Virus genome (UHGV): UHGV-0015805
DNA length: 64,000 bases
Origin: a virus
Reading direction: 5' to 3' (one strand)
Shown here: piece after piece, positions 2,006 through 62,067 of the stretch
Layout of the letters: each line of letters begins with the position of its first letter
Position numbering within the stretch: position 1 is the first letter of the stretch
Notes under the pieces: model-generated
Told to the model about the DNA's origin: nothing
Databases searched by the model: none
Seen by the model: the letters and a program-made list of their open reading frames with translations, nothing else
Translations under genes and position numbers: made by a program

Positions 2006-5000
2006 ATGCTCAAAAACTATTGTGTCTATCATTTACATACAGAGCAATCTTTGCTTGACAGCTGCACAAACTATAAGCTGTATGTAGACAAGGCCAAAAA
2101 GCTTGGTCGGACAGCGATTTGCTTTACTGAACATGGCAATCTGTACTCATGGGTAGAGAAAAAGATGTATTGCGATGAACAAGGCATTAAGTATCTGCAC
2201 GGTGTTGAGTGCTATCTCACCAAGTCGCTTTACGAATATCCTGATGTGCCTGACGAATGGTACGAAGAACATCTTGGCATGGATGAAAAGGACGTGCAAG
2301 CAGAACTTAATGAGATGCTTGAAAACAACAAACGCAAAGTGCGTGACAATTACCATACCATCCTTATTGCAAAAAATTATGATGGTGTAATGGAACTTAA
2401 TAGGCTGTGCTCACTGTCTACACAGCCCGACCATTTCTATTACAAGCCACGATTGACATTTAACGAGTTTTTAGCTATCAGCCCCAATGTTATCAAAATT
2501 TCTGCCTGCCTTGCATCCCCATTAAATAAGATGCGCAAGGGCGAAACCGATATTGACGAGCGGTTGTTACGAGCATATGATTATTATGAAATTCAGCCGC
2601 ACATTAACAGTGAAGAGCAGAAAGAATATAATCTATGGCTTGTTAAGATGTCCAAGAAATATGGCAAGCCACTGATTGCTGGAACGGACACACATAGCTT
2701 GAATCAATATAAGGCTGAATGCCGAACCATTCTTCAGCTTGCAAAGAAGATTGAATTTTCTAATGAGGACGAATTCGACCTAACATATAAAAGTTATGAC
2801 GAACTTGTTGATATGTTTGCCAAACAGGGAGTACTTGACGAGCAGACATACATTGAAGCCATCAATAACACAAATGTTATGGCAGACAGCGTTGAGCCGT
2901 TTGAGCTTGATGCTGCGTTAAAATATCCTATTCTTTATGGAGAACAGGACGAAGCAATGCTCTGGAAGGTACTTGGTGATAAGCTTGTAGATAAAGAAAA
3001 ACGCGGCGTAATCGACCGCAAGGATCGTCAAGCATATGTTGATCGCATCAAAGAAGAAATGCGTGTTCTTAAAAAAATCGGCATGACTGGCTTTATGCTG
3101 TTTATGTCCGAGATGATTTCTTGGTGTTGGGAAAATAACATTCCAGTTGGATTTTGCCGCGGCTCTGTTGGCGGGTCGATGGTGGCGTATATCAGCGATA
3201 TAATTGATGTAAATCCATTTACTTGGCATACAATGTTTGCGCGCTTTGCTAATGAACACCGTACTGAAGTGGGTGACATCGATGTAGATATAAGTCCAGA
3301 CCAACGGTACCTTGTATATGATTATATCATTAACCGCTTCGGAAAAGAAAAGACTGCATATATTCTTGCAAGCGGGACAGTTAATGACAAGGGTTGTATT
3401 GACGAGATAGGACGCGCGTTGGCTTATCGTGATGAAAATTCGCCATATACGCTTGCGAAAATAAAAGAGATTAAACAGGAATATGCCGCAGACTCCGATA
3501 AAGCAAGGCGCGATTATCCTGATTTATTCTATTACTTTGACGGACTAAACGGAACGGTTGTGTCACAGTCCATGCATCCTGCAGGAATTGTAGCAAGTCC
3601 GATTAATCTAATTGATAACTATGGCTGTTTTATCAACAATGAGGGCAAGCAGGTCATGTATATCAACATGGAAGAAGTTCACGAGACGGGGCTTGTTAAG
3701 TATGATATTTTGGGGCTGCGCAATGTTCAAATCATTCGTGATACATGCGCATTAGCCGGAATACCATATCCAAAATCTCATGAAATCAATTGGAATGATA
3801 ATGCTGTGTGGAAAGATATGGTAAAATCGCCCGTTGGGATATTCCAGTTCGAGTCCGATTTTGCCTTCAAGAGCTTGCAAAAAATGTCCCCACATAGTAT
3901 TAACGACATGTCATTAACAAATGCTGCTCTAAGACCGTCTGGCGAAAGTTATCGTGAGCGGTTGTTTAACAAAGAAGTTAATCATAATCCGTCCGAACAA
4001 ATTGATGAACTATTGGCAGATAACTATGGCTATCTTGTATTTCAGGAAGATGTCATTAAATTTCTACAAGACATATGTGGGTTAAGCGGGTCTGATGCAG
4101 ACAATGTGCGCCGGGCTATTGGGCGCAAGCAAGTTGACCGCCTGCAAAAGGCATTGCCACAAATTTTTGAGGGGTATTGCAATAAGTCTGAAAGGCCTCG
4201 CAATATTGCAGAACAAGAAGCTAAAACATTCCTACAAATTATTGAAGATAGCAGCAATTATATGTTTGGTTATAACCATAGTACGGGTTATTCAATGATT
4301 GGATATACATGTGCATATTTACGCTATCATTATCCAATCGAGTTCTGTACGGCATTGCTCAACAATGCAAATAATGATGATGATTTAACAAATGGAACGG
4401 CGCTTATTAAGCAGCTTGGCATTAAATTAAGACCGCCTTTGTTTCGTCATTCTCGGTCAACATATTTTTGCAACAAAGATGATAACACAATCTATCAAGG
4501 ATTAGATTCAATCAAACATATGTCGTCGGATGTTGCAGAAAGCCTGTATCTTCTGCGAGATAAGCAGTTCAAAAATTTCATTGATTTTTTGTTTTGTATG
4601 CAATACCTGCCAGTCAAGCCCGATAGCCGACAGCTTGATATATTGATTAAAATCGGCTATTTTTCCGAGTTTGGCAAAGCAAGGGCGTTGCTCGAGGGCG
4701 TGCGCGTATTCAATCTTTTTTATAAATCTAAGACAATAAGGCTTGACAAATGGATTGAGATGTGCTATAATATAGACGTGTTAAGGCAACACGCCGAAAA
4801 AATGACCGATAAGACGGCAAGCGGCATTGACAACTATGCTTTAATTCTTGCAATTCTTAAGCAAGAAAGTATGCCTAAGACGACCATTGTGGACATGCTG
4901 AGATGGCAAGCTGAATTTTTAGGTTATGTTGACGGTCATGATTCAAAGCGAGACATAAATGACTGGCTTGTGCTTGACAGTAAAACCACTAATTACGGTA

Positions 5001-5215
5001 TTGCGTGGTTAAGGTTATACAACCTACAACATGGAGTTGAGCGTCAATATAAGTGCAATAAAAAATGGTGGGCAACACATCAATGCAAATCGGGCGATAT
5101 AATCAAAGCCGTGCTTGACAATGTGCCTAAATGGACGAAAAATTCTGATGGCAAATTTATTAAGACGAACGAGACAGAAGTGCAAGTTAAATGTTTTAAG
5201 GTATTGGAGGAATGA
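2006..5215 (+). CDS. dnaE: DNA polymerase III alpha subunit (DnaE-like, N-terminal PHP domain)
   Basis: YHLHTEQSLLDS PHP motif; GFCRGSVGGSMVAYISDIIDVNPF matches the PolIII alpha palm motif GxGRGSAAGSLVAY; about 1070 aa; RBS AAGGAGGTG. Confidence 0.85.
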   Translation: MLKNYCVYHLHTEQSLLDSCTNYKLYVDKAKKLGRTAICFTEHGNLYSWVEKKMYCDEQGIKYLHGVECYLTKSLYEYPDVPDEWYEEHLGMDEKDVQAELNEMLENNKRKVRDNYHTILIAKNYDGVMELNRLCSLSTQPDHFYYKPRLTFNEFLAISPNVIKISACLASPLNKMRKGETDIDERLLRAYDYYEIQPHINSEEQKEYNLWLVKMSKKYGKPLIAGTDTHSLNQYKAECRTILQLAKKIEFSNEDEFDLTYKSYDELVDMFAKQGVLDEQTYIEAINNTNVMADSVEPFELDAALKYPILYGEQDEAMLWKVLGDKLVDKEKRGVIDRKDRQAYVDRIKEEMRVLKKIGMTGFMLFMSEMISWCWENNIPVGFCRGSVGGSMVAYISDIIDVNPFTWHTMFARFANEHRTEVGDIDVDISPDQRYLVYDYIINRFGKEKTAYILASGTVNDKGCIDEIGRALAYRDENSPYTLAKIKEIKQEYAADSDKARRDYPDLFYYFDGLNGTVVSQSMHPAGIVASPINLIDNYGCFINNEGKQVMYINMEEVHETGLVKYDILGLRNVQIIRDTCALAGIPYPKSHEINWNDNAVWKDMVKSPVGIFQFESDFAFKSLQKMSPHSINDMSLTNAALRPSGESYRERLFNKEVNHNPSEQIDELLADNYGYLVFQEDVIKFLQDICGLSGSDADNVRRAIGRKQVDRLQKALPQIFEGYCNKSERPRNIAEQEAKTFLQIIEDSSNYMFGYNHSTGYSMIGYTCAYLRYHYPIEFCTALLNNANNDDDLTNGTALIKQLGIKLRPPLFRHSRSTYFCNKDDNTIYQGLDSIKHMSSDVAESLYLLRDKQFKNFIDFLFCMQYLPVKPDSRQLDILIKIGYFSEFGKARALLEGVRVFNLFYKSKTIRLDKWIEMCYNIDVLRQHAEKMTDKTASGIDNYALILAILKQESMPKTTIVDMLRWQAEFLGYVDGHDSKRDINDWLVLDSKTTNYGIAWLRLYNLQHGVERQYKCNKKWWATHQCKSGDIIKAVLDNVPKWTKNSDGKFIKTNETEVQVKCFKVLEE
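4743..4771 (+). promoter_or_regulatory. consensus promoter-like element inside the dnaE coding sequence
   Basis: ttgacaaatggattgagatgtgctataat, same architecture as the intergenic promoters. Confidence 0.3.
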
Positions 5216-5383
5216 AAGAATATATTTGTGTAGCAATGCGTGGTAGACCGATTGAAAATCCGTCGTTACGAGTTGCTGGGCTTCCAACTAAGCAGCGCCT
5301 TGAGCCAAATTTTGATTGTGTCAACACACTGTCAACAGTATGCAAAGACAATATGATATTGGAGATTGTCCAAGATGAGTAAA
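5211..5383 (+). CDS. small hypothetical protein (57 aa), translationally coupled to dnaE
   Basis: ATGA overlap with the dnaE stop; GGAGG RBS just upstream. Confidence 0.25.
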
Positions 5384-5528
5384 ATTATGCATCTTGTCTA
5401 TGATGATTATAACGGCAACCTATATGGGCACATAGACTATATTGGTACTATCACGGCACATGGCTGTGGATGCAAGGCGATGCGCAACGGAATAAAAATA
5501 ATCGAAGTAATAATGGAGGATGATGACA

Positions 5529-6335
5529 ATGAGCAAACCGTATGAACTTGTTAATTTTTGCGAAATTGATAAATTCGCAACTAAGTCATATTGTGCGGTG
5601 CATGATGTAGACCCGAGCAAGAATCTTGGCGATATTACCAAGGTGGATGAGAACGAATTGCCTGAGTTTAATTGCATCTTTGGTGGTTCGCCTTGTCAAG
5701 ATTTTAGCGTTGCCGGTAAAGGTGCTGGCTCTATGTGGAAATGCCATGAATGTGGGCATGAGTACAACCCTATTACTATGCACTGGTCTAAGCGGCATAT
5801 CTGTCCTGAATGTGGTAGCGACCAGCTTGATAAGACGCGCTCATCTTTGCTTGTTGAATGGCTGCGTGTAATTCGAGCCAACAAGCCAAAGTGGGGTATT
5901 TATGAAAACGTGAAGAATATCACAGGCAAAAAGCATCGAGCCACATTCGACTTATTCGTTAAGGAACTCGAAGAATATGGCTACAATGTATATTGGAAAG
6001 TGCTTAATGCCAAAAATTATGGAGTCCCGCAAAATCGCAACCGCGTGTATGTTGTCATTGTACTGAAAGAGTTGGACAACGGCAAGTTTGAGTTCCCCAA
6101 GCCGTTCGATAATGGCGTTCGATTAAAAGATGTGCTTGAAGATGCGGTCGATGAAAAATATTATGTCGAAACCGATGCCTCCCAGGAGTTAATCGATGAA
6201 CTTGTCGAAAGTGGTAGACTCGACAAGGTAGCAAGCAATACGGTTCGTACAGGGGGGCGCAACGGCCCGATAGGCGACAGACACAATTGGGATGCTGTTG
6301 CAGTTAGGGCGAACGAGGCACATCAAAATCGATAG
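5529..6335 (+). CDS. DNA (cytosine-5) methyltransferase, part 1: motifs II-VIII plus N-terminal half of the target-recognition domain, with a zinc-ribbon insert; motif I absent here
   Basis: EIDKFA, GGSPCQDFSVAGKG (motif IV PCQ), ENVKN (VI) and QNRNRVYVV (VIII). CHECG...CPECG inserted between IV and VI. Ends at an in-frame TAG (6333-6335). Confidence 0.75.
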   Translation: MSKPYELVNFCEIDKFATKSYCAVHDVDPSKNLGDITKVDENELPEFNCIFGGSPCQDFSVAGKGAGSMWKCHECGHEYNPITMHWSKRHICPECGSDQLDKTRSSLLVEWLRVIRANKPKWGIYENVKNITGKKHRATFDLFVKELEEYGYNVYWKVLNAKNYGVPQNRNRVYVVIVLKELDNGKFEFPKPFDNGVRLKDVLEDAVDEKYYVETDASQELIDELVESGRLDKVASNTVRTGGRNGPIGDRHNWDAVAVRANEAHQNR

Positions 6336-9696: not shown

Positions 9697-9725
9697 TTGA
9701 CAGTTTGATGTTTTCGTGATATAAT
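9697..9725 (+). promoter_or_regulatory. consensus promoter (TTGACA-17-TATAAT, TG-extended)
   Basis: ttgacagtttgatgttttcgtgatataat. Confidence 0.6.
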
Positions 9726-12235: not shown

Positions 12236-12264
12236 TTGACAAATTGTTTGATATGTGATATAAT
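12236..12264 (+). promoter_or_regulatory. consensus promoter (TTGACA-17-TATAAT, TG-extended)
   Basis: ttgacaaattgtttgatatgtgatataat. Confidence 0.6.
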
Positions 12265-37468: not shown

Positions 37469-40450
37469 TTATCCCCTCTCGTAAGCATATTGAAGTGCAA
37501 GATTTTTCAGCCCGGTTACAAACTCTCTTGCATTTGTTACATTGGGCAATTCAAGGTTGTTGACATTCACAGTGGTGTTGCTGGAATTACCAAACTTAAA
37601 GCCCATTAAGCCCTTGAGCGCAGATACAAAATCACTCGGAGATGTGCTACCCCATGCAAACAAATTCTTAGTAACGCCGCTTGTAAGTATGCCGTCACCA
37701 CGATTAAGAATGCGCATTTCAGGACCGTTCTCTCCGACAAGGCTCATGCCGCCAGTTGCGCCAAGCGTGCCGTTTGCATAGCTCGACCACTTGCCTGTTG
37801 CGGCATCATAGGTCGAATTATCTTCAAGCAATTTGGCCAGCTCAACATTTGCATTATGCAACGCCTCGCGCTCGGCAGAGCTTGTAGATGTTGCCCACGC
37901 CGCGCTATTAGCTTGCATCTTGTCAAGAATGGTCTGTCTGACCTCTGCTTTTCTGCGAGCTTCAATGTCCGCCTTGCTTGCCTCTAAGCCTTTATTGCGA
38001 TTATATTCGTCAAGCTTTGCCTGCGCCGCAGATATTGCATCCGCATCTTGCACATACTGGAATCGACCGTCTTTATATACAAGCTTTTTCTGCTCTCTTG
38101 CCTTAGCCATTTCATCGAGCAGTTTTTCATATTCAATTTGGTCGGACAGGGCATCATTAACTTCTTCAAGCCGCGACAGTTCAGAATCATACTTTTCGTT
38201 GATTTTATCAACGGCGTCCTCGACCGACTTAGTTGATTCTTCGACCAACTCTTGCATGCGCTTCTTTTCATACGCATAAATCTTTTCAGAATATTGCCAA
38301 TATTCTTCTTGATATTTGGACTTGCCCTTAAAGAATTTATCGACCATTTCAGTAAGCTCAGCGTAATACTGCTCTTCTGTAATTTCGTCCATTGCAAGTT
38401 GATGGTCTTTATATGCAAGCCAATCTGTAAATGCTTTTTTGTAGGTGTCTGTGGCGGAAGATGCGGCGCTCGAACTGGAACTATATGTTGCGAGCAGTTG
38501 TTCCAGCCACGCAATTTCATCTTCGATATTTTTTATGTTCTGTTCTGCAGTGGCTACTAATGCGTCCTGTCGGGCTGCTTCAGCTTCGGCTTCTTCAGCT
38601 GTTGACAAAAGCTGTGTTTGCCCCATTAAACTCTGTCTTGTCCTGAATCTTAGTGCCTCTGCTTTTGCGGCTTCGGCGTGCGACAATGCCGTTTTCTGCG
38701 CCTGTAATTCCTCTTGTTTTTGCAATAGAACAAATTGCGTTAACTCCTTGCTTCCGCGCAACGCCGCCTTGCCTGCCGATGTCAACGCGCCCGCTTCGTC
38801 ATAAAGTAGGTCATTAAGCCCAGGCAACGCTTCGTCTAATGCTTCTTGCGTTTCAGATTGCAATCCGCCATAAGTATTATAGTCCTGAACTGCCTTATTT
38901 AATGCATTTTGTGCTTTTGCGAGATTGTCGACATTATCTCGCTGGGCTTTTGTTATTCCTGCATTTTTGCCTGCTTGGGTGTTAAGGTTTGCAACAGTTT
39001 CTCCGAGCGATTGAGCCGCAACATTGGCTCTTTCTAATTTTCCTTCCGCGTTTTCAATCGCCTCGTCATACTGCCTTATCTCTTCAATAGTAGCGCTAAC
39101 TTCTTTTGACATGAAGCTCGGGAATATCCCATATCGAAGAACATTCTCATAAAAGCGAATCAAATCGTCCGTGTCCATTAAAGAAACATCAACATCAAGG
39201 TTTTCGCCAAGCCCCGTTATATCAAATCCGAGCGCGTCTCTGTATCGTTTTAGCCTTTCTTGGAGCTCTTGCATCTCAGCGCGTAGTTTATCGCCTGCAG
39301 ATTCGCGAGATGCTTTTGACTCTATTATTTGCCCATAATAAGCCGTTTGCTTTTCTTGCAACGCCGCTTGAAGCGCCTCTTGCTTCATCGCTTCGATGCG
39401 TTTATAAATTGCACCAGTATCTTCTTTGATTTTACCAGTATGTTCGCCAATGCTGAGATTCAAGTCGGGGTAAATTTTATTAAGTTGGTCTACGGCGCTT
39501 TTATACTTATACGCCTCACTCGTAGACATATTCTCAACCTTGTTAAGGTCTTCAATTACCCCAACCAAATATTTTGCTTGTTCGGCATTCGCCTTAGCAA
39601 TATTTGTGGCATCTGTATAAGTGGCGTTAATTGTTTCTATGGACTTATTTATCTTGTTGATTGTGCCGTACTGCGCATCATAAGCATCTTTAACAAGCCC
39701 TATCATAACCGTTAGCGCCGCCATTGCAATGCCAACGACAGGCACAGACGCCTGCAATGCTTTTACGCCAGTTGTCGCGCCAGCCAAAACAGATGTAAAT
39801 GCTTTTATCGATTTTATTGCGACTGGAATGACTTGCGCAATAATTCCGCCGAGCCCAGTAAAAACGCCACTCAGCAAAACAAATTGTGTTAAAGTTCTGC
39901 CTGCTTCGGTGTTCAATACTTTTAACGCGCCATTAGCCAAATTAAGCAAAGACTTAACCAATTCGCTATCAATGGTTTTGTTTGCAAAATCTTCCCATGT
40001 TGCTTTTAATGCAGTTGTTTTTGCTTCAAGCGAATCAAGGACTTTTGCATTTTCTGCTGCGGCCGAACCCGAAGAATTGTATGCAAGCTCTGTTGCTTTT
40101 TGAACGCCCGAAAAGTTAGAAAGCAATGCAGCAAGATTCTGCGATTGCCTTGCTCCTGCCGCCTGTTGCAAGAAATAAGATTGCTCGTTCTTGCTAAGTG
40201 AATCCCACTTGGGGGCAAGGTCGGACATAACATCGTACAGCGACCTTAACTGCCCTGCCTCGTCTTTGACCGCAATTCCGTGCTTTGTATACCATGCAAG
40301 CAGGTTTTTACCTGTGCTTGATGATTCGTCTACAATTTGGTTAAAGCGACTCTGCACTGTAACAAGTGAGCGTGAAGCAGATGCCGCAGAACGAGTAATT
40401 TCGGTAATGCCAGTTAATACATAATTTATTTGCCAGAGGACGCCAACCCT
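37469..40450 (-). CDS. tape measure protein, 3' exon (frame open upstream of the GTG at 40357 to about 40450)
   Basis: LAWYTKHGIAVKDEAGQLRSLYDVMSDL matches the TP901-family TMP core continuation. Long coiled-coil, 960+ aa. Upstream frame stays open through the end of the intron ORF. Confidence 0.75.
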   Translation of the reverse strand, partial: RVGVLWQINYVLTGITEITRSAASASRSLVTVQSRFNQIVDESSSTGKNLLAWYTKHGIAVKDEAGQLRSLYDVMSDLAPKWDSLSKNEQSYFLQQAAGARQSQNLAALLSNFSGVQKATELAYNSSGSAAAENAKVLDSLEAKTTALKATWEDFANKTIDSELVKSLLNLANGALKVLNTEAGRTLTQFVLLSGVFTGLGGIIAQVIPVAIKSIKAFTSVLAGATTGVKALQASVPVVGIAMAALTVMIGLVKDAYDAQYGTINKINKSIETINATYTDATNIAKANAEQAKYLVGVIEDLNKVENMSTSEAYKYKSAVDQLNKIYPDLNLSIGEHTGKIKEDTGAIYKRIEAMKQEALQAALQEKQTAYYGQIIESKASRESAGDKLRAEMQELQERLKRYRDALGFDITGLGENLDVDVSLMDTDDLIRFYENVLRYGIFPSFMSKEVSATIEEIRQYDEAIENAEGKLERANVAAQSLGETVANLNTQAGKNAGITKAQRDNVDNLAKAQNALNKAVQDYNTYGGLQSETQEALDEALPGLNDLLYDEAGALTSAGKAALRGSKELTQFVLLQKQEELQAQKTALSHAEAAKAEALRFRTRQSLMGQTQLLSTAEEAEAEAARQDALVATAEQNIKNIEDEIAWLEQLLATYSSSSSAASSATDTYKKAFTDWLAYKDHQLAMDEITEEQYYAELTEMVDKFFKGKSKYQEEYWQYSEKIYAYEKKRMQELVEESTKSVEDAVDKINEKYDSELSRLEEVNDALSDQIEYEKLLDEMAKAREQKKLVYKDGRFQYVQDADAISAAQAKLDEYNRNKGLEASKADIEARRKAEVRQTILDKMQANSAAWATSTSSAEREALHNANVELAKLLEDNSTYDAATGKWSSYANGTLGATGGMSLVGENGPEMRILNRGDGILTSGVTKNLFAWGSTSPSDFVSALKGLMGFKFGNSSNTTVNVNNLELPNVTNAREFVTGLKNLALQYAYERG

Positions 40451-41853
40451 CTAAGCGATTCTTGAAAAAATATTTTATAAGAATTGTCCTTATCAAATAA
40501 ATAATAAGGTATTCTTATCAAAGGAATGTTGTTTTCTTTGCAATAAGCATCTTTTATCTTATCATGCCTTTTAGTGCTTTCAAAAGTTTTTTGAGCGCGC
40601 TCAAATGATATGCGATTAAAACAACACGGTTTATAGTGACCTTGTCCGTCTATTTCCACAAGAATGCCACCATCTACGATGTAGAAATCAAACGGTAACG
40701 GCAGTATATCCCTGCATTGATTTAATGAATATTGCCGCACATATTTAATATTAAGTTCTTGTAGAAGCTTTTCAAACATGTCCTCAAACCGCGACATGCT
40801 CTTAGCGCAAACAGAACACCTCGTTTTCCCATTTTGAAACGCCGCTATTGATGTATCAAATCGGTTGCCACATTCGCAAATAAACGAAAGGGATGTCAAT
40901 CTTCCACCTTGATACTCTTTGTCGTTGCAAAATCCAATACACTCTACGTTTGCGCCATGTGTACTTGCCCACCAATTCACATTGTAAATATAGTTCTTTC
41001 TATTTATCCGAACATCAAAACGAGACATTCCTTTGCCAGAATTTATTGCAGCTGCAGAAATAAATCCTCTATATCCTTCGGCGTCCTCGACCTCTACCCT
41101 TTGAGCATACTTTAAATCTCTCGTATCTTCATCAGATATTATCTTATAGCCGTGTGCGGATATCATCTCTCCGTATATTCTTTTTTGTCTTTTTGACGCC
41201 CGAACTTTTGTTGCGCATGACACGCAAACGAAACGATTTCTACAAGATATCTCGTATACTTTTTTACGAAATACATTTCCACAACCGCAACGAAGTTCAA
41301 TTATGGCGCACCCGTTTCGACCAGTTGACCACGAGACAAACTCAGTGGTCGGCGCACATTTTGACAAAAGAACACGCATATTATGCTCGATGTTTGCGTA
41401 ATTATATTTACCCCATATTGTTGGCGACTTACCAGCCTTTAAGTTGGAATAAGACGCATAACACCATATTCCGTCCTTTCTTTCGCAAAGCACATATTCG
41501 TTTGCATTGACATAATCACCAATTATTTTAAGTCCATGAGAGTTAAACAATTTTATAACTTCAGAATATTCTAATTTTTTCAAGAATCCTCCCTCTTTCA
41601 ATGGAGATTAGACCATATCTTTTTTACCTATGTTTCCCCGCGCTTGCGGGTATGCCTACTGAATTAGTAGGGCTTACTGGTCGTTGAACAGTTATCAATT
41701 ACCTATTGATAACTTGCTGCGGATTATCCAATCTCTATATTTGTTACTATACAGCAGTCATTACTTGCTCCACCGCATTATTACTAATACGGTTTAGTAT
41801 ATAGAGCTCTAAGGAACTTCCCGTCAATTTATAGGTTTTTAATTGACCTATTA
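40380..41853 (-). mobile_element. group I intron (with ORF) interrupting the tape measure gene
   Basis: Minus-strand core contains canonical Q element AATCCGCAGC and R element GTTCAACGACCAGTAAGCC. Flanking ORFs are consecutive pieces of one TMP domain. Boundaries approximate. Confidence 0.6.
40426..41601 (-). CDS. intron-encoded homing endonuclease, PD-(D/E)xK Vsr/DUF559-like C-terminal domain with zinc-finger N-terminus
   Basis: C-terminal FDFYIVDGGILVEIDGQGHY...KDAYCKENNIPLIRIPYY; several CxxC pairs; TTG start after AGGGAGG. Confidence 0.55.
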   Translation of the reverse strand: MKEGGFLKKLEYSEVIKLFNSHGLKIIGDYVNANEYVLCERKDGIWCYASYSNLKAGKSPTIWGKYNYANIEHNMRVLLSKCAPTTEFVSWSTGRNGCAIIELRCGCGNVFRKKVYEISCRNRFVCVSCATKVRASKRQKRIYGEMISAHGYKIISDEDTRDLKYAQRVEVEDAEGYRGFISAAAINSGKGMSRFDVRINRKNYIYNVNWWASTHGANVECIGFCNDKEYQGGRLTSLSFICECGNRFDTSIAAFQNGKTRCSVCAKSMSRFEDMFEKLLQELNIKYVRQYSLNQCRDILPLPFDFYIVDGGILVEIDGQGHYKPCCFNRISFERAQKTFESTKRHDKIKDAYCKENNIPLIRIPYYLFDKDNSYKIFFQESLRGLASSGK

Positions 41854-42168
41854 ACCTAAGCCAATGCTCTCTTCCATCGTATTTCCGCCAACAGACATTG
41901 CGGCAGACATATTTCCGAGGTTTCGAGCTAAATCTGCTGAAGAAACCGCCATATGGTTGCTGACATTATTGACGCTATCAATGATATGAGAAGATTCATC
42001 AGCAGCAATATTAAATGCCTTCATCTGGGCAATGATAAACTCAGATGCTTCACCCGCCGAAAGTTGCTCATCGGCGATATTTTGGTACATAGCGGCAACT
42101 TTTGCTAATTCCGCAGCATCGGTTTCATTGAACCCGGCTTTCGCAAATTCGGTTGCGCTTTCCACCAT
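41851..42168 (-). CDS. tape measure protein, middle exon (TP901-family core segment)
   Basis: ELAKVAAMYQN...SSADLARNLGNMSAAMSVGGNTMEESIGLG matches the TMP core; closed upstream by an in-frame TAA three codons before the ATG. Confidence 0.6.
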   Translation of the reverse strand: MVESATEFAKAGFNETDAAELAKVAAMYQNIADEQLSAGEASEFIIAQMKAFNIAADESSHIIDSVNNVSNHMAVSSADLARNLGNMSAAMSVGGNTMEESIGLG

Positions 42169-42181
42169 TTGGGACTTTTAT

Positions 42182-42415
42182 TCAATCTTTCTTGGAGTAA
42201 TCAATAAATCCCCAATCGTTATGCTCTTTTTCTTCTCTTCTGTACCGCTCGGACACCCGCCTATCTTCTTCTTCCCATTTTCTGTATTGTTCGGGATTAT
42301 TCTTCTTGGCAGCATCCTTATCAAAAGGAATTCCAAAAACAACATGCCTGAAGAAGCAAGCAACGCCATAGCAGACACAATAAAGCATCATCAAAGGAAC
42401 CGCAATTAACAACAT
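42182..42415 (-). CDS. small single-pass membrane protein encoded inside intron B
   Basis: MLLIAVPLMMLYCVCYGVACFF followed by a highly charged tail; own promoter and RBS AAGGTGGG. Confidence 0.45.
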   Translation of the reverse strand: MLLIAVPLMMLYCVCYGVACFFRHVVFGIPFDKDAAKKNNPEQYRKWEEEDRRVSERYRREEKEHNDWGFIDYSKKD

Positions 42416-42444
42416 AATCAAGCCCACCTTTCTTTGTTGATGCC

Positions 42445-42473
42445 ATTATAACACATAACTTTTAGATTGTCAA
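42445..42473 (-). promoter_or_regulatory. consensus promoter (TTGACA-17-TATAAT) on the minus strand inside intron B
   Basis: Minus-sense ttgacaatctaaaagttatgtgttataat. Confidence 0.5.
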
Positions 42474-42725
42474 TACCTTTTTCGAAATATTCTGGACTAT
42501 TTCTTCACCCTATTTAATTTGGAGGGGTCGAACTTATAAAGTCTCTTGACACATCCCTGTTCGGGACTTCGCGCCCAATCTACCATTGTTTGTCCCGAAC
42601 AATATACAATATTCGTGACAAATTGCACTTAGGTCTTTCGACCATATGCTATCCCGCTTATTTTTAACAGTTTCCCACATTCACACTTGGGCTTATTTCA
42701 TCCCTATGTTGTAGTTAAACAGGCT

Positions 42726-43193
42726 TTAGGTTTTACTGGGTTTTGAACAATTCTCTGTGCTGGTTTGCCATCCCATCACACGGGCTCCCGTCCATAGTTT
42801 ACCCGTCTTCGCAACTTCTGCTCCCATGTCGGTTAGCTTGCTCACATATTCGTCCATTGATTCGCCGGACAAATCTGTGACCTTTGCTAATTCGACCTGC
42901 GCGGCATTCATGGTGTAGACTTCAGAGACCATAGACTTAATAATATCTATGCTCTTCTCCATAATCATGTTCGCCGCTTGATATGTTAATTCAAAATTCT
43001 TCGCGCTGGACGAGGCTTCGTTCATGTTCTTCGACAGATTGCTTATTCCGTCAGATGCTTCCTTAGCCCCTTTTGCTTTGATATTGATATTGACATTTTT
43101 TGCCGCGTCATTCAATTTCTTTTGAATTTCGCTTGTACTTGTCTTTATCTCAATACCTACGCCAATATTCCAGCTCGTGTTTTTATTCGCCAT
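42726..43193 (-). CDS. tape measure protein, 5' exon (N-terminal segment); C-terminal ~20 codons probably intron-derived
   Basis: N-terminal TMP-like VELAKVTDLSGESMDEYVSKLTDMGAEVAKTGK; the ORF stop coincides with the conserved intron 5' motif cctaaagcct. Confidence 0.55.
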   Translation of the reverse strand: MANKNTSWNIGVGIEIKTSTSEIQKKLNDAAKNVNINIKAKGAKEASDGISNLSKNMNEASSSAKNFELTYQAANMIMEKSIDIIKSMVSEVYTMNAAQVELAKVTDLSGESMDEYVSKLTDMGAEVAKTGKLWTGARVMGWQTSTENCSKPSKT

Positions 43194-43207: not shown

Positions 43208-43705
43208 TTATTTATGAATTTGGCTCCAACCCAAAAGAATGGCATCGCTTATATCATCATCGTTCTTACTGCTTGACGGAGACACCCAATTCAAGTCCAG
43301 TCCGAACAATTCGTTGGCTTTCTCCACGGACTTCCTTTTAAGAACATCTCGCTTCGTGCCATCTCTTGTGCCGTCAAAAATTCCTATATCGCTACGCCAT
43401 TTCTGAGGAAGTACAAATTGAATCGGTACATGATGAGATGCGGCTATCCCAAGAACATATCCTTGAACAGCCCCAAGAATCATCAACACTTTAACATTTG
43501 CCGCCTTCAACGGCACTTCCTCTACGATTAACCTATCGGGTCGATAGGTCTTAATCAATTCAGACAATGGCGCACCTTCATGTGTCAGCCTTTCTCGCCA
43601 ACTATCTCCCTCGGGCTTAATACAGCCATAATGAATGAGCTTATCTTCATTGAAAACCGCATATCCCGTGCAAGATGTGCTGCAATCCAGTGATAATGTG
43701 ATCAT
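43208..43705 (-). CDS. RuvC-like Holliday junction resolvase
   Basis: ITLSLDCSTSCTGYAVF (RuvC motif 1 with Asp), VEEVP (Glu), DDDISDAILLG (Asp pair). Confidence 0.55.
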   Translation of the reverse strand: MITLSLDCSTSCTGYAVFNEDKLIHYGCIKPEGDSWRERLTHEGAPLSELIKTYRPDRLIVEEVPLKAANVKVLMILGAVQGYVLGIAASHHVPIQFVLPQKWRSDIGIFDGTRDGTKRDVLKRKSVEKANELFGLDLNWVSPSSSKNDDDISDAILLGWSQIHK

Positions 43706-59967: not shown

Positions 59968-61185
59968 TTTTTTAAACTATTTTTTTTGAGGTTAATTATA
60001 TATATTGCCAGTGAAATCCATATGCGATCCGTTGTTGCCCGCGACAACACTTGGAAATTGAGGACGGGTCCTTGTTCAAGGCACGACCCGCCTCAGCCAC
60101 GGATTCATAAGTAACTCCCGTTTCGACACACATCAGCTTCTTCCCACCAATGTTAAGATGTGCAATCCGCGATTGATCTCGCATCTCCTCTGTCCAAATT
60201 CGATTTTTATTATATCTTCTAAGATGCTCTTTTACGCTTTCTGGACATTTGTGCCCTACTCCGTTCCTCTTACCTTTCATCCTCTCCGACCTACGACGGC
60301 ATATTTCTTCCGAAAGCTTCCATGTTTTGCCTTTTACATTTTGGTTGCCCATTATACTTTGGCTTATTTTATTTCTTGTTTCTTCGGAATGTTTTTTGCC
60401 GAACATGTGATTATCTTTCCCGCATTTTATTTGTTCCGGGTGTTCTTTAAAACGTTTTTTAGCTATTTCGCTCATTCTCTTCTTGTCTTCTTCTCTGTGA
60501 CGATATCCTTTTGTGCTTTCTGCTATCGGACATATATTGTATCCGACATCTCTGTCGGCACTATCATAAAAATCTATCCAATACTGCTCGCGTTGTGTTA
60601 AATTTTCGTGCGATACGCCTCTTTCCAACACTTCAACACTAAAGTTATCAAATCCATACTTTTTAATAGCCATGCAGATACGCCTATTTGTATCTTCGCG
60701 TAAGTATTGTTTCATACGAGTATAAAAATCCACCGTCTGCCCGACATAAACCTTCCCGTTTATTAGGTTTCGCCATAAATAAATGCAACTAAAAGAAAAT
60801 TTCTTTTTATCATTAACCTCAAAAATATTCATGCTATAAAATCCTTCCTGCAATAAAGATTATTATTCAAGAACAAATGGGGTAATTTGTTCGTTTGCAG
60901 ACGAACAAAAACAATTTGCAACTTGCTGTCCCCCATTGTTCTTTTAAGCACAGGTCGCTACTCCTCGTTTCTCTCGTTTTTTTGAGAGACTGCATGTTTC
61001 CATGCAGATAAGACTATATCTTCACTTTGCTTTTATGCAAAGGCATACCACTTCCACAACCAATCGCTTGTTGTGTACTCCCTTACGGGATAGTCGTTGA
61101 ACGTTCCTCTATTCAAAGCTTCGCTGCTGATTGCCCAATTTTTATCATTTTCTCGCATATCACACTTAGCCTTATTTCATGCTTA
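59968..61185 (-). mobile_element. group I intron with GIY-YIG endonuclease ORF splitting the terminase large subunit gene
   Basis: Minus-sense AATCAGCAGCGAAGC (Q-like) and GTTCAACGACTATCCCGTAAGGGAGTAC (R element plus GNRA hairpin). ATPase and nuclease domains lie in separate ORFs on either side. Boundaries approximate. Confidence 0.6.
59996..60832 (-). CDS. GIY-YIG homing endonuclease (I-TevI-like, NUMOD repeats)
   Basis: IYLWRNLINGKVYVGQT..F..R...Y GIY-YIG motif; repeated H..E.R.KIS motifs; C-terminal DNA-binding module. Confidence 0.8.
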   Translation of the reverse strand: MNIFEVNDKKKFSFSCIYLWRNLINGKVYVGQTVDFYTRMKQYLREDTNRRICMAIKKYGFDNFSVEVLERGVSHENLTQREQYWIDFYDSADRDVGYNICPIAESTKGYRHREEDKKRMSEIAKKRFKEHPEQIKCGKDNHMFGKKHSEETRNKISQSIMGNQNVKGKTWKLSEEICRRRSERMKGKRNGVGHKCPESVKEHLRRYNKNRIWTEEMRDQSRIAHLNIGGKKLMCVETGVTYESVAEAGRALNKDPSSISKCCRGQQRIAYGFHWQYI

Positions 61186-62067
61186 TGTTGTAGCTGATAA
61201 AACTCTAAGGGTGTTCCAGCAATTCAATATGTTTAATGCGAACCTTTTCAAATCCGCTTTGGACATTTTCTTCTTTGCCTTTCGGTAGTCCGCCCATGTT
61301 CGGCTTCCTTCTTGAATTGCAGTATAAATGTCCTCTGCCATAGGAATGTACTTCTCGTGCTTTGATGTATAATAGCCCTCAACGCATTTTCTGTATTCTC
61401 TGATAAACCATTCCCACTCATACCGAGTAGATGAAATATAGCAAGATTTTGCTGCCTTTATCCACCTATCTGTTTTATACTTAGGGTCAAGTGTAAATGG
61501 CGCAGGACGCTCATGCCCCATTGGCTCAAATACTGAGTCAAGAATTGCTTTCTTCAGCAATCGCGTCTCTTCATATATCGTAAATGTAGAACGCATACCA
61601 CGGGCGTTTTCAGAACACACAGCGACCGTTGTCGTTGATTCATTTAATGTGTTCGTTAAGACGAAAACACCCTCATCAAGCATTTTAACTGTCAAATAGC
61701 CCTTCTCATACAAATACTTCAAATATGGCGAATATTTCTTAATGATTTCTTTTATCATCTTATCTCTTACAAGTCTTGCGGACTGCGGGATAGAAGATGA
61801 TGTAACAACAATTTCTGAATGCGGATATAAACTCATTGCACAAAATGCAGCAACGCCAACAATAAAAGACTTCGCCGTTGAACGAGACGAAAAATCCCAA
61901 TATTCGTCGGCAACGCCGATCATGTGCAATTTCAGCTTCTGCACAGGATATAGCTTAATACCAAGGACCTCTTCAGCAAATAAGTCCCAATTCCTGCGAT
62001 AATAAGTTATCCACTTTTTGACATTTTCGGACTTGCGGAATTGTTCGTTTTCTCTTGCGGTCGGCAT
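61183..62067 (-). CDS. terL: terminase large subunit, 5' exon (ATPase domain)
   Basis: LYPVQKLKLHMI and SSRSTAKSF (Walker A-like), typical of the TerL N-terminus; last residues probably intron-encoded. Confidence 0.65.
   Translation of the reverse strand: MPTARENEQFRKSENVKKWITYYRRNWDLFAEEVLGIKLYPVQKLKLHMIGVADEYWDFSSRSTAKSFIVGVAAFCAMSLYPHSEIVVTSSSIPQSARLVRDKMIKEIIKKYSPYLKYLYEKGYLTVKMLDEGVFVLTNTLNESTTTVAVCSENARGMRSTFTIYEETRLLKKAILDSVFEPMGHERPAPFTLDPKYKTDRWIKAAKSCYISSTRYEWEWFIREYRKCVEGYYTSKHEKYIPMAEDIYTAIQEGSRTWADYRKAKKKMSKADLKRFALNILNCWNTLRVLSATT

Follow-up and report, generated by a model that had tools for sequence, protein, structure and literature searches.

How does a phage make the ruler that sets the length of its tail when the corresponding gene appears to come in three pieces? 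This question is raised by virus genome UHGV-0015805, of which 64,000 nucleotides (nt; hereafter the window, i.e. the whole stretch of DNA that was analysed) include a tape measure protein (TMP) region at positions 37,469-43,193 on the minus strand. Three minus-strand open reading frames (ORFs) lie there (42726-43193, 41851-42168 and 37469-40357; all three are confirmed in the ORF list), and an earlier reading made from the sequence alone had taken them for successive parts of one TP901-family TMP, with two group I introns breaking it up. Are three polypeptides made, or one, and are both insertions really introns? We conclude, with a probability of roughly 0.88, that the TMP gene is split by two group I introns that need to be removed for the full-length protein to be produced. 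In the mechanism that we propose, both introns would leave the late mRNA by self-splicing and full-length TMP would be translated afterwards; splicing in vivo is what we infer from the sequence, and it is reasonable to infer further that full-length TMP, and hence tail assembly, depends on it.

The first evidence comes from taking the insertions out in silico. Removal of 42800-42175 (626 nt) and 41858-40420 (1439 nt) leaves one ORF of 3660 nt, composed of 393 + 316 + 2951 nt, in which the sole stop codon is the terminal one and the exons are free of frameshifts and stops. The predicted full-length product has 1219 amino acids (aa), slightly fewer than the 1250 or so previously expected, and a mass of about 134 kDa. 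On its own, the middle ORF matches PF10145 (PhageMin_Tail) at just positions 19-119 of 201, which means that this domain is cut at both sides. The spliced protein matches positions 4-201 in one stretch (79.9 bits), and TIGR01760 (tape_meas_TP901) recognises it at 105.4 bits with a curated cutoff of 28.8. In other words, a contiguous domain above the curated cutoff, and thus membership of the TP901 family, is obtained only after in-silico splicing, and the assignment of the three ORFs to one such TMP stands.

Where exactly do the introns begin and end? A provisional spliced protein was aligned with 71 metagenomic homologs, several of which run continuously through both break points, and these uninterrupted homologs, together with the rules for group I introns (a U preceding the 5' splice site and a G closing the intron), fix both boundaries. 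The intron ends are those given above and not the ORF ends, where the sequence-only reading had set them. Since intron 1, the upstream one, is 42800-42175, the first ORF ends in 24 codons of intron read-through (KLWTGARVMGWQTSTENCSKPSKT); the final G of a middle piece that had been thought to end in ...GLG is read-through as well. In Enterocloster phage PMBT24 the TMP is a single uninterrupted coding sequence, with which the spliced window TMP aligns gap-free at both junctions (marked here by ^): VAKTG^SQMVE against VARTADEMVE for exons 1 and 2 (in a longer stretch, VAKTG^SQMVESATEF against VARTADEMVEAATEF), and ESIGL^LTGITEI against ETIGLLTAGAEI for exons 2 and 3 (EESIGL^LTGITEI against EETIGLLTAGAEI), where a Leu codon is split as T^TA. 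The predicted ligated RNAs read GACGGGU^UCCCAAAUGG and AUUGGCU^UAUUAACUGG, and the two predicted junctions can also be given as GAAGACGGGU^UCCCAAAUGGUG and GCAUUGGCU^UAUUAACUGGCA. An initial junction guess for intron 2, ...GLG^TGI..., was rejected because it would make A the last intron base; the junction with U before the intron and G at its end is preferred on account of a perfect P10 pairing and of the agreement with the ...GLLTG... of the homologs.

Might the phage nonetheless make three polypeptides from three ORFs, with the insertions kept in the RNA of a truly split gene? Public gene callers do report the pieces as separate genes, in many gut-phage contigs as three to five of them, and exon 2 happens to start near an in-frame ATG. 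That ATG, however, has no Shine-Dalgarno sequence, the first start in exon 3 is a GTG 62 nt into the exon that also lacks one, and the breaks fall within one Pfam/TIGRFAM domain that isolated relatives encode in a continuous TMP. Additionally, both insertions hold guides that are complementary to both flanking exons and that covary with them. We regard a split gene as highly improbable and prefer two introns that are spliced out.

What kind of RNA would then be removed? For intron 1, a 23-nt pattern from the 5' part gathered a family of 16 IMG/VR loci and two contigs of metagenome-assembled genomes (MAGs), and the element sits at the identical TMP position in every locus with enough flank to check. 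The structure, built by hand from 14 distinct cores with pairs counted on a MAFFT alignment, has 14 helices and 60 pairs: P1-P9 are complete, the P4-P6 domain lies inside a P3/P7 pseudoknot, J6/7 and J8/7 are conserved, and P5 bears a branched P5a-e extension with two GAAA tetraloops. Standard pairs are found in 94.6% of cells over the 14 cores, compared with 31-44% after the 3' partners are slid, and two-sided compensatory changes affect 27 of the 60 pairs, values that were reached by 0 of 500 shuffles. For example, P7 varies at one position with three pair types (GA[C/G/A]U x A[G/C/U]UC), P1 comes in three covarying versions (CGGGU/GCCCG, CCGGU/GCCGG and GCGGU/GCCGC), and P10 covaries with the exon, being GGGA/UCCC in the window lineage and CUGA/UCAG in other members. 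Such widespread compensatory change argues for ongoing selection on the RNA structure. In L001, L002 and L021, three relatives, the intron cores are 82-93% conserved, as opposed to 58-70% for the flanking exon DNA. Judged by these patterns, intron 1 is a diverged group I lineage that is always located at this TMP site. A kissing interaction of UCAUU/CUGUU with the P6 loop was considered and dropped, as a local GAAA-capped hairpin (P5c) fits more sequences. The last base of TMP exon 1, usually an invariant U, is C in three of L001, L005, L015 and L022, and G in L022, whose guide compensates (CCGGG/CCCGG) such that a Watson-Crick pair replaces the U.G wobble.

Intron 2 is recognised by Rfam model RF00028 at 52.1 bits (gathering threshold 50, E 2.4e-10) in a full-length match at 41589-41906, in which P3, P4-P6, P7 and P9 are aligned and 59 P8 model positions are deleted. 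Following P7, the order is P7.1, P7.2, P3', AAAA and J8/7 (41626-41611), and the spacing from P3' to J8/7-P7' is 3-5 nt in intron 2 and its relatives. A 319-nt ORF-less form is present at the same site in the IMG/VR relatives L008, L023 and L024, where P8 is likewise absent, and P8 is also missing from a diverged intron at this site in L031 (4330-4385), in which P3 is fully compensated (UAGGG/CCCUA); the homologous intron L001:4657-4974 has a normal P8. The hairpin at the 3' end covaries, with AGAGG/CCUCU in the window and AGAGA/UCUCU in the ORF-less copies. Intron 2 is a predicted IA-like ribozyme. Taken together, the U and G ends, P1, P10, the P3/P7 pseudoknot, J8/7, the restored reading frame, the Rfam match of intron 2 and the covariation of intron 1 uphold the view that both insertions are group I introns.

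In the phage T4 nrdD (sunY) and IA2 introns, the ORF is found 3' of the core, and the 3' splice site, which is far from P9, is chosen via P10 and the terminal G; there are also known cases of intron ORFs that have expression signals of their own. The window introns are alike in having an ORF 3' of the catalytic core and a 3' splice site hundreds of nt past P9, and intron 2 shares P7.1/P7.2. They differ in that intron 1 carries a cargo other than an endonuclease, lacks P7.1/P7.2 and has an elaborate P5 extension, and in that intron 2 is without P8.

What does intron 1 carry instead? Downstream of P9, a sigma-70 promoter and a small membrane-protein gene would take the place of an endonuclease gene. 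All 12 hexamer positions of the promoter match the consensus, and a TG extension is present as well; transcription is predicted to begin some 7 nt downstream of 42445. Perfect sites of this type number five in the window, with 0.08 expected; the other four (TTGACA-N17-TATAAT on the plus strand at 1080-1108, 4743-4771, 9697-9725 and 12236-12264) fall in the replication module and are probably phage early promoters. TGTG precedes the -10 box in the intron 1 promoter and in three of these four sites, the one at 1080 having GCAG. TTGACA and TGnTAnnnT are kept in every family member with sequence at this point, with a spacer that varies, and each full-length member combines a consensus sigma-70 promoter with small membrane-protein ORFs, either one or two of them, and has no endonuclease.

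The cargo ORFs of the family follow a Shine-Dalgarno sequence and encode proteins of 61-111 aa, each with between one and three hydrophobic helices and with a charged tail that ends in a motif resembling KYDN[DE][YW]G[YFI]I; their stop codons lie 3-19 nt before the 3' splice site. The 77-aa protein of the window has a single hydrophobic helix, at its N terminus, and its charged tail ends in ...EHNDWGFIDYSKKD. In each of the seven pairs compared, non-synonymous differences are outnumbered by synonymous ones. When 5.8 billion proteins were searched with a profile, only 65 clusters came back, all of 40-110 aa (68-110 aa by a second figure), none of which has a Pfam match and for which the lone source name is 'hypothetical protein'; the 77-aa protein itself gave no match in Pfam (above cutoff), NCBIfam or PHROG. 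Its cluster has 173 member sequences, and the single cargo cluster examined for context is located between TMP exon 1 and the remaining TMP. As the host-type promoter lies inside the intron, the membrane protein is probably made early and independently of TMP. Comparable in arrangement are morons, and membrane proteins for early superinfection exclusion such as HK97 gp15 or T4 Imm: there, too, a small membrane protein has its own host-type promoter, here within a late structural operon. The window gene differs in being inside a predicted self-splicing intron. A membrane protein that is expressed early brings to mind a role akin to superinfection exclusion, but this is an analogy only. The activity of the promoter and the function of the protein are both predictions, and the literature searched for intron-encoded membrane proteins in phages yielded nothing relevant.

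Should the upstream insertion simply be regarded as a moron, with a promoter and a small gene that came to lie in the TMP gene, and with RNA-like features that arose by chance? In favour of a moron are the conserved small ORF with its Shine-Dalgarno sequence and perfect promoter, the lack of an endonuclease gene, and an Rfam score of intron 1 that is under the threshold. But the approximately 330 nt upstream of the promoter fold as P1-P9 with a pseudoknot and 27 covarying pairs, the edges of the insertion fall exactly at U^ and G^, both exons are engaged in pairing through P1 and P10, and an unspliced insertion in an essential gene would kill the phage. There is very little chance, in our estimate, that the moron explanation is right, and a group I intron with a cargo gene is the explanation that we keep.

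In intron 2, the corresponding place would be held by a gene for an I-Bth0305I-type endonuclease of Vsr fold, inserted between P9 and the last 3' hairpin. This gene encodes 391 aa from a TTG at 41601 or, more likely, 385 aa from a TTG at 41583 that is preceded by GGAGG. Within 41606-41581, this Shine-Dalgarno sequence falls in the 3' strand of P9, so ribozyme folding could limit translation of the endonuclease. Two N-terminal CxC...CxxC zinc ribbons are followed by a C-terminal Vsr-like nuclease domain, and the ORF matches the phage homing-endonuclease PHROGs 559, 9084 and 7140; there is no Pfam match at E <= 0.1, DUF559 included, and no PDB sequence match. The family counts at least 581 clusters of about 380 aa with near-zero Pfam coverage (a few carry just a PF05207 zinc-ribbon match), and the window protein's own cluster has 47 member sequences. 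An AlphaFold2 model from 35 homologs (mean predicted local distance difference test score, 88.3) has a Vsr-type nuclease fold, and in this predicted fold the former label of 'Vsr/DUF559-type' is borne out. The invariant acidic, His and Lys residues D305, E316, D318, H322, D347 and K350 would be compatible with a Vsr or I-Bth0305I active site. Identity to I-Bth0305I (EDxHD family, PDB 3R3P) and E. coli Vsr (PDB 1CW0) is just 12-18%; further differences are the motif, FDF...ExDGxxH...HDKxK in contrast to the contiguous EDxHD of the I-Bth0305I family, and the two zinc ribbons in the N-terminal half. Such presence/absence, with a 1439-nt form that has the ORF and a 319-nt form that does not, is to be expected if the endonuclease gene is mobile, and the endonuclease presumably renders intron 2 mobile, its activity and target being predicted.

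Several observations weigh against our conclusion. Of the two insertions to which the group I model was to be applied as a check, only intron 2 is recognised; intron 1 scores 15.6 bits, well under the threshold of 50 (E about 0.2-1), in a match covering just 42473-42610. The slid-partner control favours the intron 1 structure, as that structure was derived from the same sequences; in the window lineage, the strands of P3 have to pair in a shifted register (GAAUU/AGUUC), and just 3-6 bp make up P4 and P5. Intron 2 has no P8 hairpin and so falls short of a complete P3-P9 core, and with this canonical helix absent its autonomous activity is not guaranteed. Finally, IMG/VR and the metagenome collection were scanned with the spliced-junction sequences for intron-less alleles of the close lineage, and none emerged: the scans gave 0 matches and one chance match, respectively. 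Could one or both introns be decayed relics that no longer splice, leaving a phage that is defective or that needs a helper? The P8-less intron 2 would be the main candidate, and the failure of Rfam to recognise intron 1 and the C or G at the last exon position of some relatives could be read in the same way. Yet the exons are intact, the P8-less intron 2 recurs in four assemblies that are independent of one another and also, with a compensating P3, in a diverged relative, the helices of intron 1 show widespread compensatory change, and the lineage is abundant, as judged by the sizes of the cargo and endonuclease clusters. Decay is, in our judgment, unlikely, and we continue with introns that splice. 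A further step is possible, although we would put the odds against it: the intron 1 lineage may have swapped its endonuclease for a useful membrane protein under an early promoter and been retained for its benefit to the phage (e.g. superinfection exclusion) and not for homing, and, separately, intron 2 and its L031 relative may represent an active P8-less class of IA-like ribozyme. Coordinates are collected in Table 1.

Table 1. Predicted features of the split TMP gene of UHGV-0015805 (window positions)
Feature	Position	Strand	Details
TMP exon 1	42801..43193	-	131 codons, end ...AAG ACG GGU; ORF list, homolog-alignment junction, P1 pairing
Intron 1, group I	42175..42800	-	626 nt, last nt G at 42175; family structure and exon pairings
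Intron 1 ribozyme core	42472..42800	-	P1-P9 with P3/P7 pseudoknot
Intron 1 P1	exon strand 42806-42801 (ACGGGU) x internal guide sequence 42785-42780 (GCCCGU)	-	U.G at splice site
Intron 1 P10	guide 42789-42786 (GGGA) x 3' exon UCCC	-	
Intron 1 P2	42779-42757	-	
Intron 1 P3	42753-42749 x 42534-42530	-	
Intron 1 P4	42740-42735 x 42579-42574	-	
Intron 1 P5	42731-42729 x 42584-42582	-	
Intron 1 P5a	42723-42716 x 42660-42653	-	encloses P5b/c
Intron 1 P6	42567-42563 x 42557-42553	-	
Intron 1 P7	42543-42540 (GACU) x AGUC within J8/7-P7' 42505-42495	-	
Intron 1 P8	42527-42525 x 42510-42508	-	
Intron 1 P9	42491-42472	-	
Sigma-70 promoter in intron 1	42445..42473	-	TTGACA, 17 nt, TG-n-TATAAT; overlaps 3' strand of P9
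Intron 1 cargo ORF	42182..42415	-	77 aa; Shine-Dalgarno GGUGG 42428-42424; stop 7 nt before 3' splice site
TMP exon 2	41859..42174	-	316 nt, start UCC CAA AUG GUG, end ...AUU GGC U; ORF list, homolog alignment
Intron 2, group I	40420..41858	-	1439 nt, terminal G at 40420; RF00028 and direct pairings
Intron 2 ribozyme core	41589..41858	-	Rfam alignment and comparison with L001, L031
Intron 2 P1	exon strand 41864-41859 (UUGGCU) x internal guide sequence 41848-41843 (GGUCAA)	-	U.G wobble at cleavage site
Intron 2 P10	guide 41854-41849 (UUAAUA) x 3' exon UAUUAA	-	perfect 6 bp, first six exon 3 bases
Intron 2 P3	41836-41831 x 41631-41626	-	
Intron 2 P7 5' strand	41682-41679	-	
Intron 2 P7.1	41671-41655	-	
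Intron 2 P7.2	41650-41637	-	
Intron 2 J8/7-P7'	41621-41611	-	
Intron 2 P9	41606-41589	-	
Intron 2 homing endonuclease gene	40426..41601	-	stop 5 nt before 3' splice site; between P9 and last 3' hairpin
Intron 2 3'-terminal hairpin	40435..40452	-	AGAGG...CCUCU, overlaps last endonuclease codons
TMP exon 3	37469..40419	-	2951 nt including stop, start UA UUA ACU GGC; ORF list, homolog alignment

The two TMP introns are not alone, either in the window or in its relatives. The terL gene, too, is divided by an intron of group I (minus strand, 59996-61259), with an Rfam match of 81.6 bits at 60990-61259 followed by an ORF for a 285-aa GIY-YIG-type homing endonuclease (59996-60853; PHROG 314, 5123). 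The likeness of intron 1 to the terL intron that had been noticed beforehand is real and lies within the first 75 nt from 42728 (intron 1 positions 86-141), with an extent of 56 nt at 82% identity: what is shared is a P5b module (42715-42660 and about 61193-61138), whereas the cores differ, which suggests that peripheral RNA modules are exchanged between introns of one genome. Among the relatives, L002:4555-4863 (also L003 and L004) holds an ORF-less TMP group I intron after '...NQQAG' (27 bits), and L001:4657-4974 holds one after '...YMESL' with a 369-aa ORF (52.3 bits). With introns at these two further sites, the TMP of this phage group has at least four intron sites and emerges as a hot spot. 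The 97-kb contig L031 has at TMP site 2 (4040-6031) an intron-2-like core, then a tandem intron-1-like core (about 4540-4830) and a 394-aa ORF, which may be a nested or twin intron; Rfam returned nothing at E <= 0.1 for this region.

The window clearly derives from a phage genome. Its minus-strand structural module spans terL to lysin, and its plus-strand replication module codes for a DNA polymerase, a DnaB-like helicase, a primase, exonuclease V and a methyltransferase. The lineage is one of gut phages of roughly 65-100 kb; the closest isolated phages are PMBT24 and CB457P1-type phages of Enterocloster bolteae, with a portal identity of 43%, and a megablast of the TMP region against 50,697 phage records gave no match. 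Which bacterium is the host? Two MAG matches conflict, one being a 'Bacteroidales' bin and the other a 'Eubacteriales' bin; a Clostridia host is indicated by the Enterocloster phage relatives, by the consensus sigma-70 promoters and by the strong Shine-Dalgarno sequences. Directly upstream of the TMP gene, within the tail module, there is a gene for a RuvC-like Holliday junction resolvase (43208-43705, minus strand), and this synteny recurs in PMBT24, L028 and L029.

How unusual is such a gene? TMP introns had been called unusual at the outset, a description that is tempered by Tourasse and Kolsto 2008 (PMC2504315), who describe IA1/IA2 group I introns at three TMP sites in prophages of the B. 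cereus group. The E33L prophage has two TMP introns and one terL intron, the same layout as in the window, and the TMP-IVS1/2/3 introns likewise occur several to one TMP, at sites that differ by phage, some with an endonuclease gene and some without. Their hosts are Bacillus prophages, whereas the window lineage is a gut phage near the Enterocloster phages, and the promoter, membrane-protein cargo and P8 loss of the window introns go unmentioned for the Bacillus TMP introns in the section consulted (PMC2504315). For Cluster J mycobacteriophages, Pope et al. 2013 (PMC3706429) report that capsid and tail genes contain group I-like introns, with splicing demonstrated by reverse transcription PCR. 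Those introns also interrupt virion structural genes, one with an endonuclease gene and one without, like the window pair; they differ in being single, in residing in capsid and minor tail genes and not in TMP, and in having high G+C hosts (PMC3706429). In light of both reports, a two-intron TMP is a known arrangement in a new phage group. Within the literature searched, the Rfam-invisible intron 1 lineage, its promoter and membrane-protein cargo, and the P8-less core of intron 2 appear to be new.

Such phages are systematically mis-annotated, as gene callers fragment the TMP and the intron 1 family escapes Rfam entirely. In a widespread gut phage group of Lachnospiraceae type, introns thus gather in the tail-length ruler, a hot spot that extends the pattern of the Bacillus prophages. 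Should a naturally P8-less intron be active, it would tell us something about ribozyme structure. The intron 1 family can be tested as an example of a phage group I intron that carries a promoter-driven membrane protein and not a nuclease, a cargo that bears on the route by which selfish introns become tolerated or useful.

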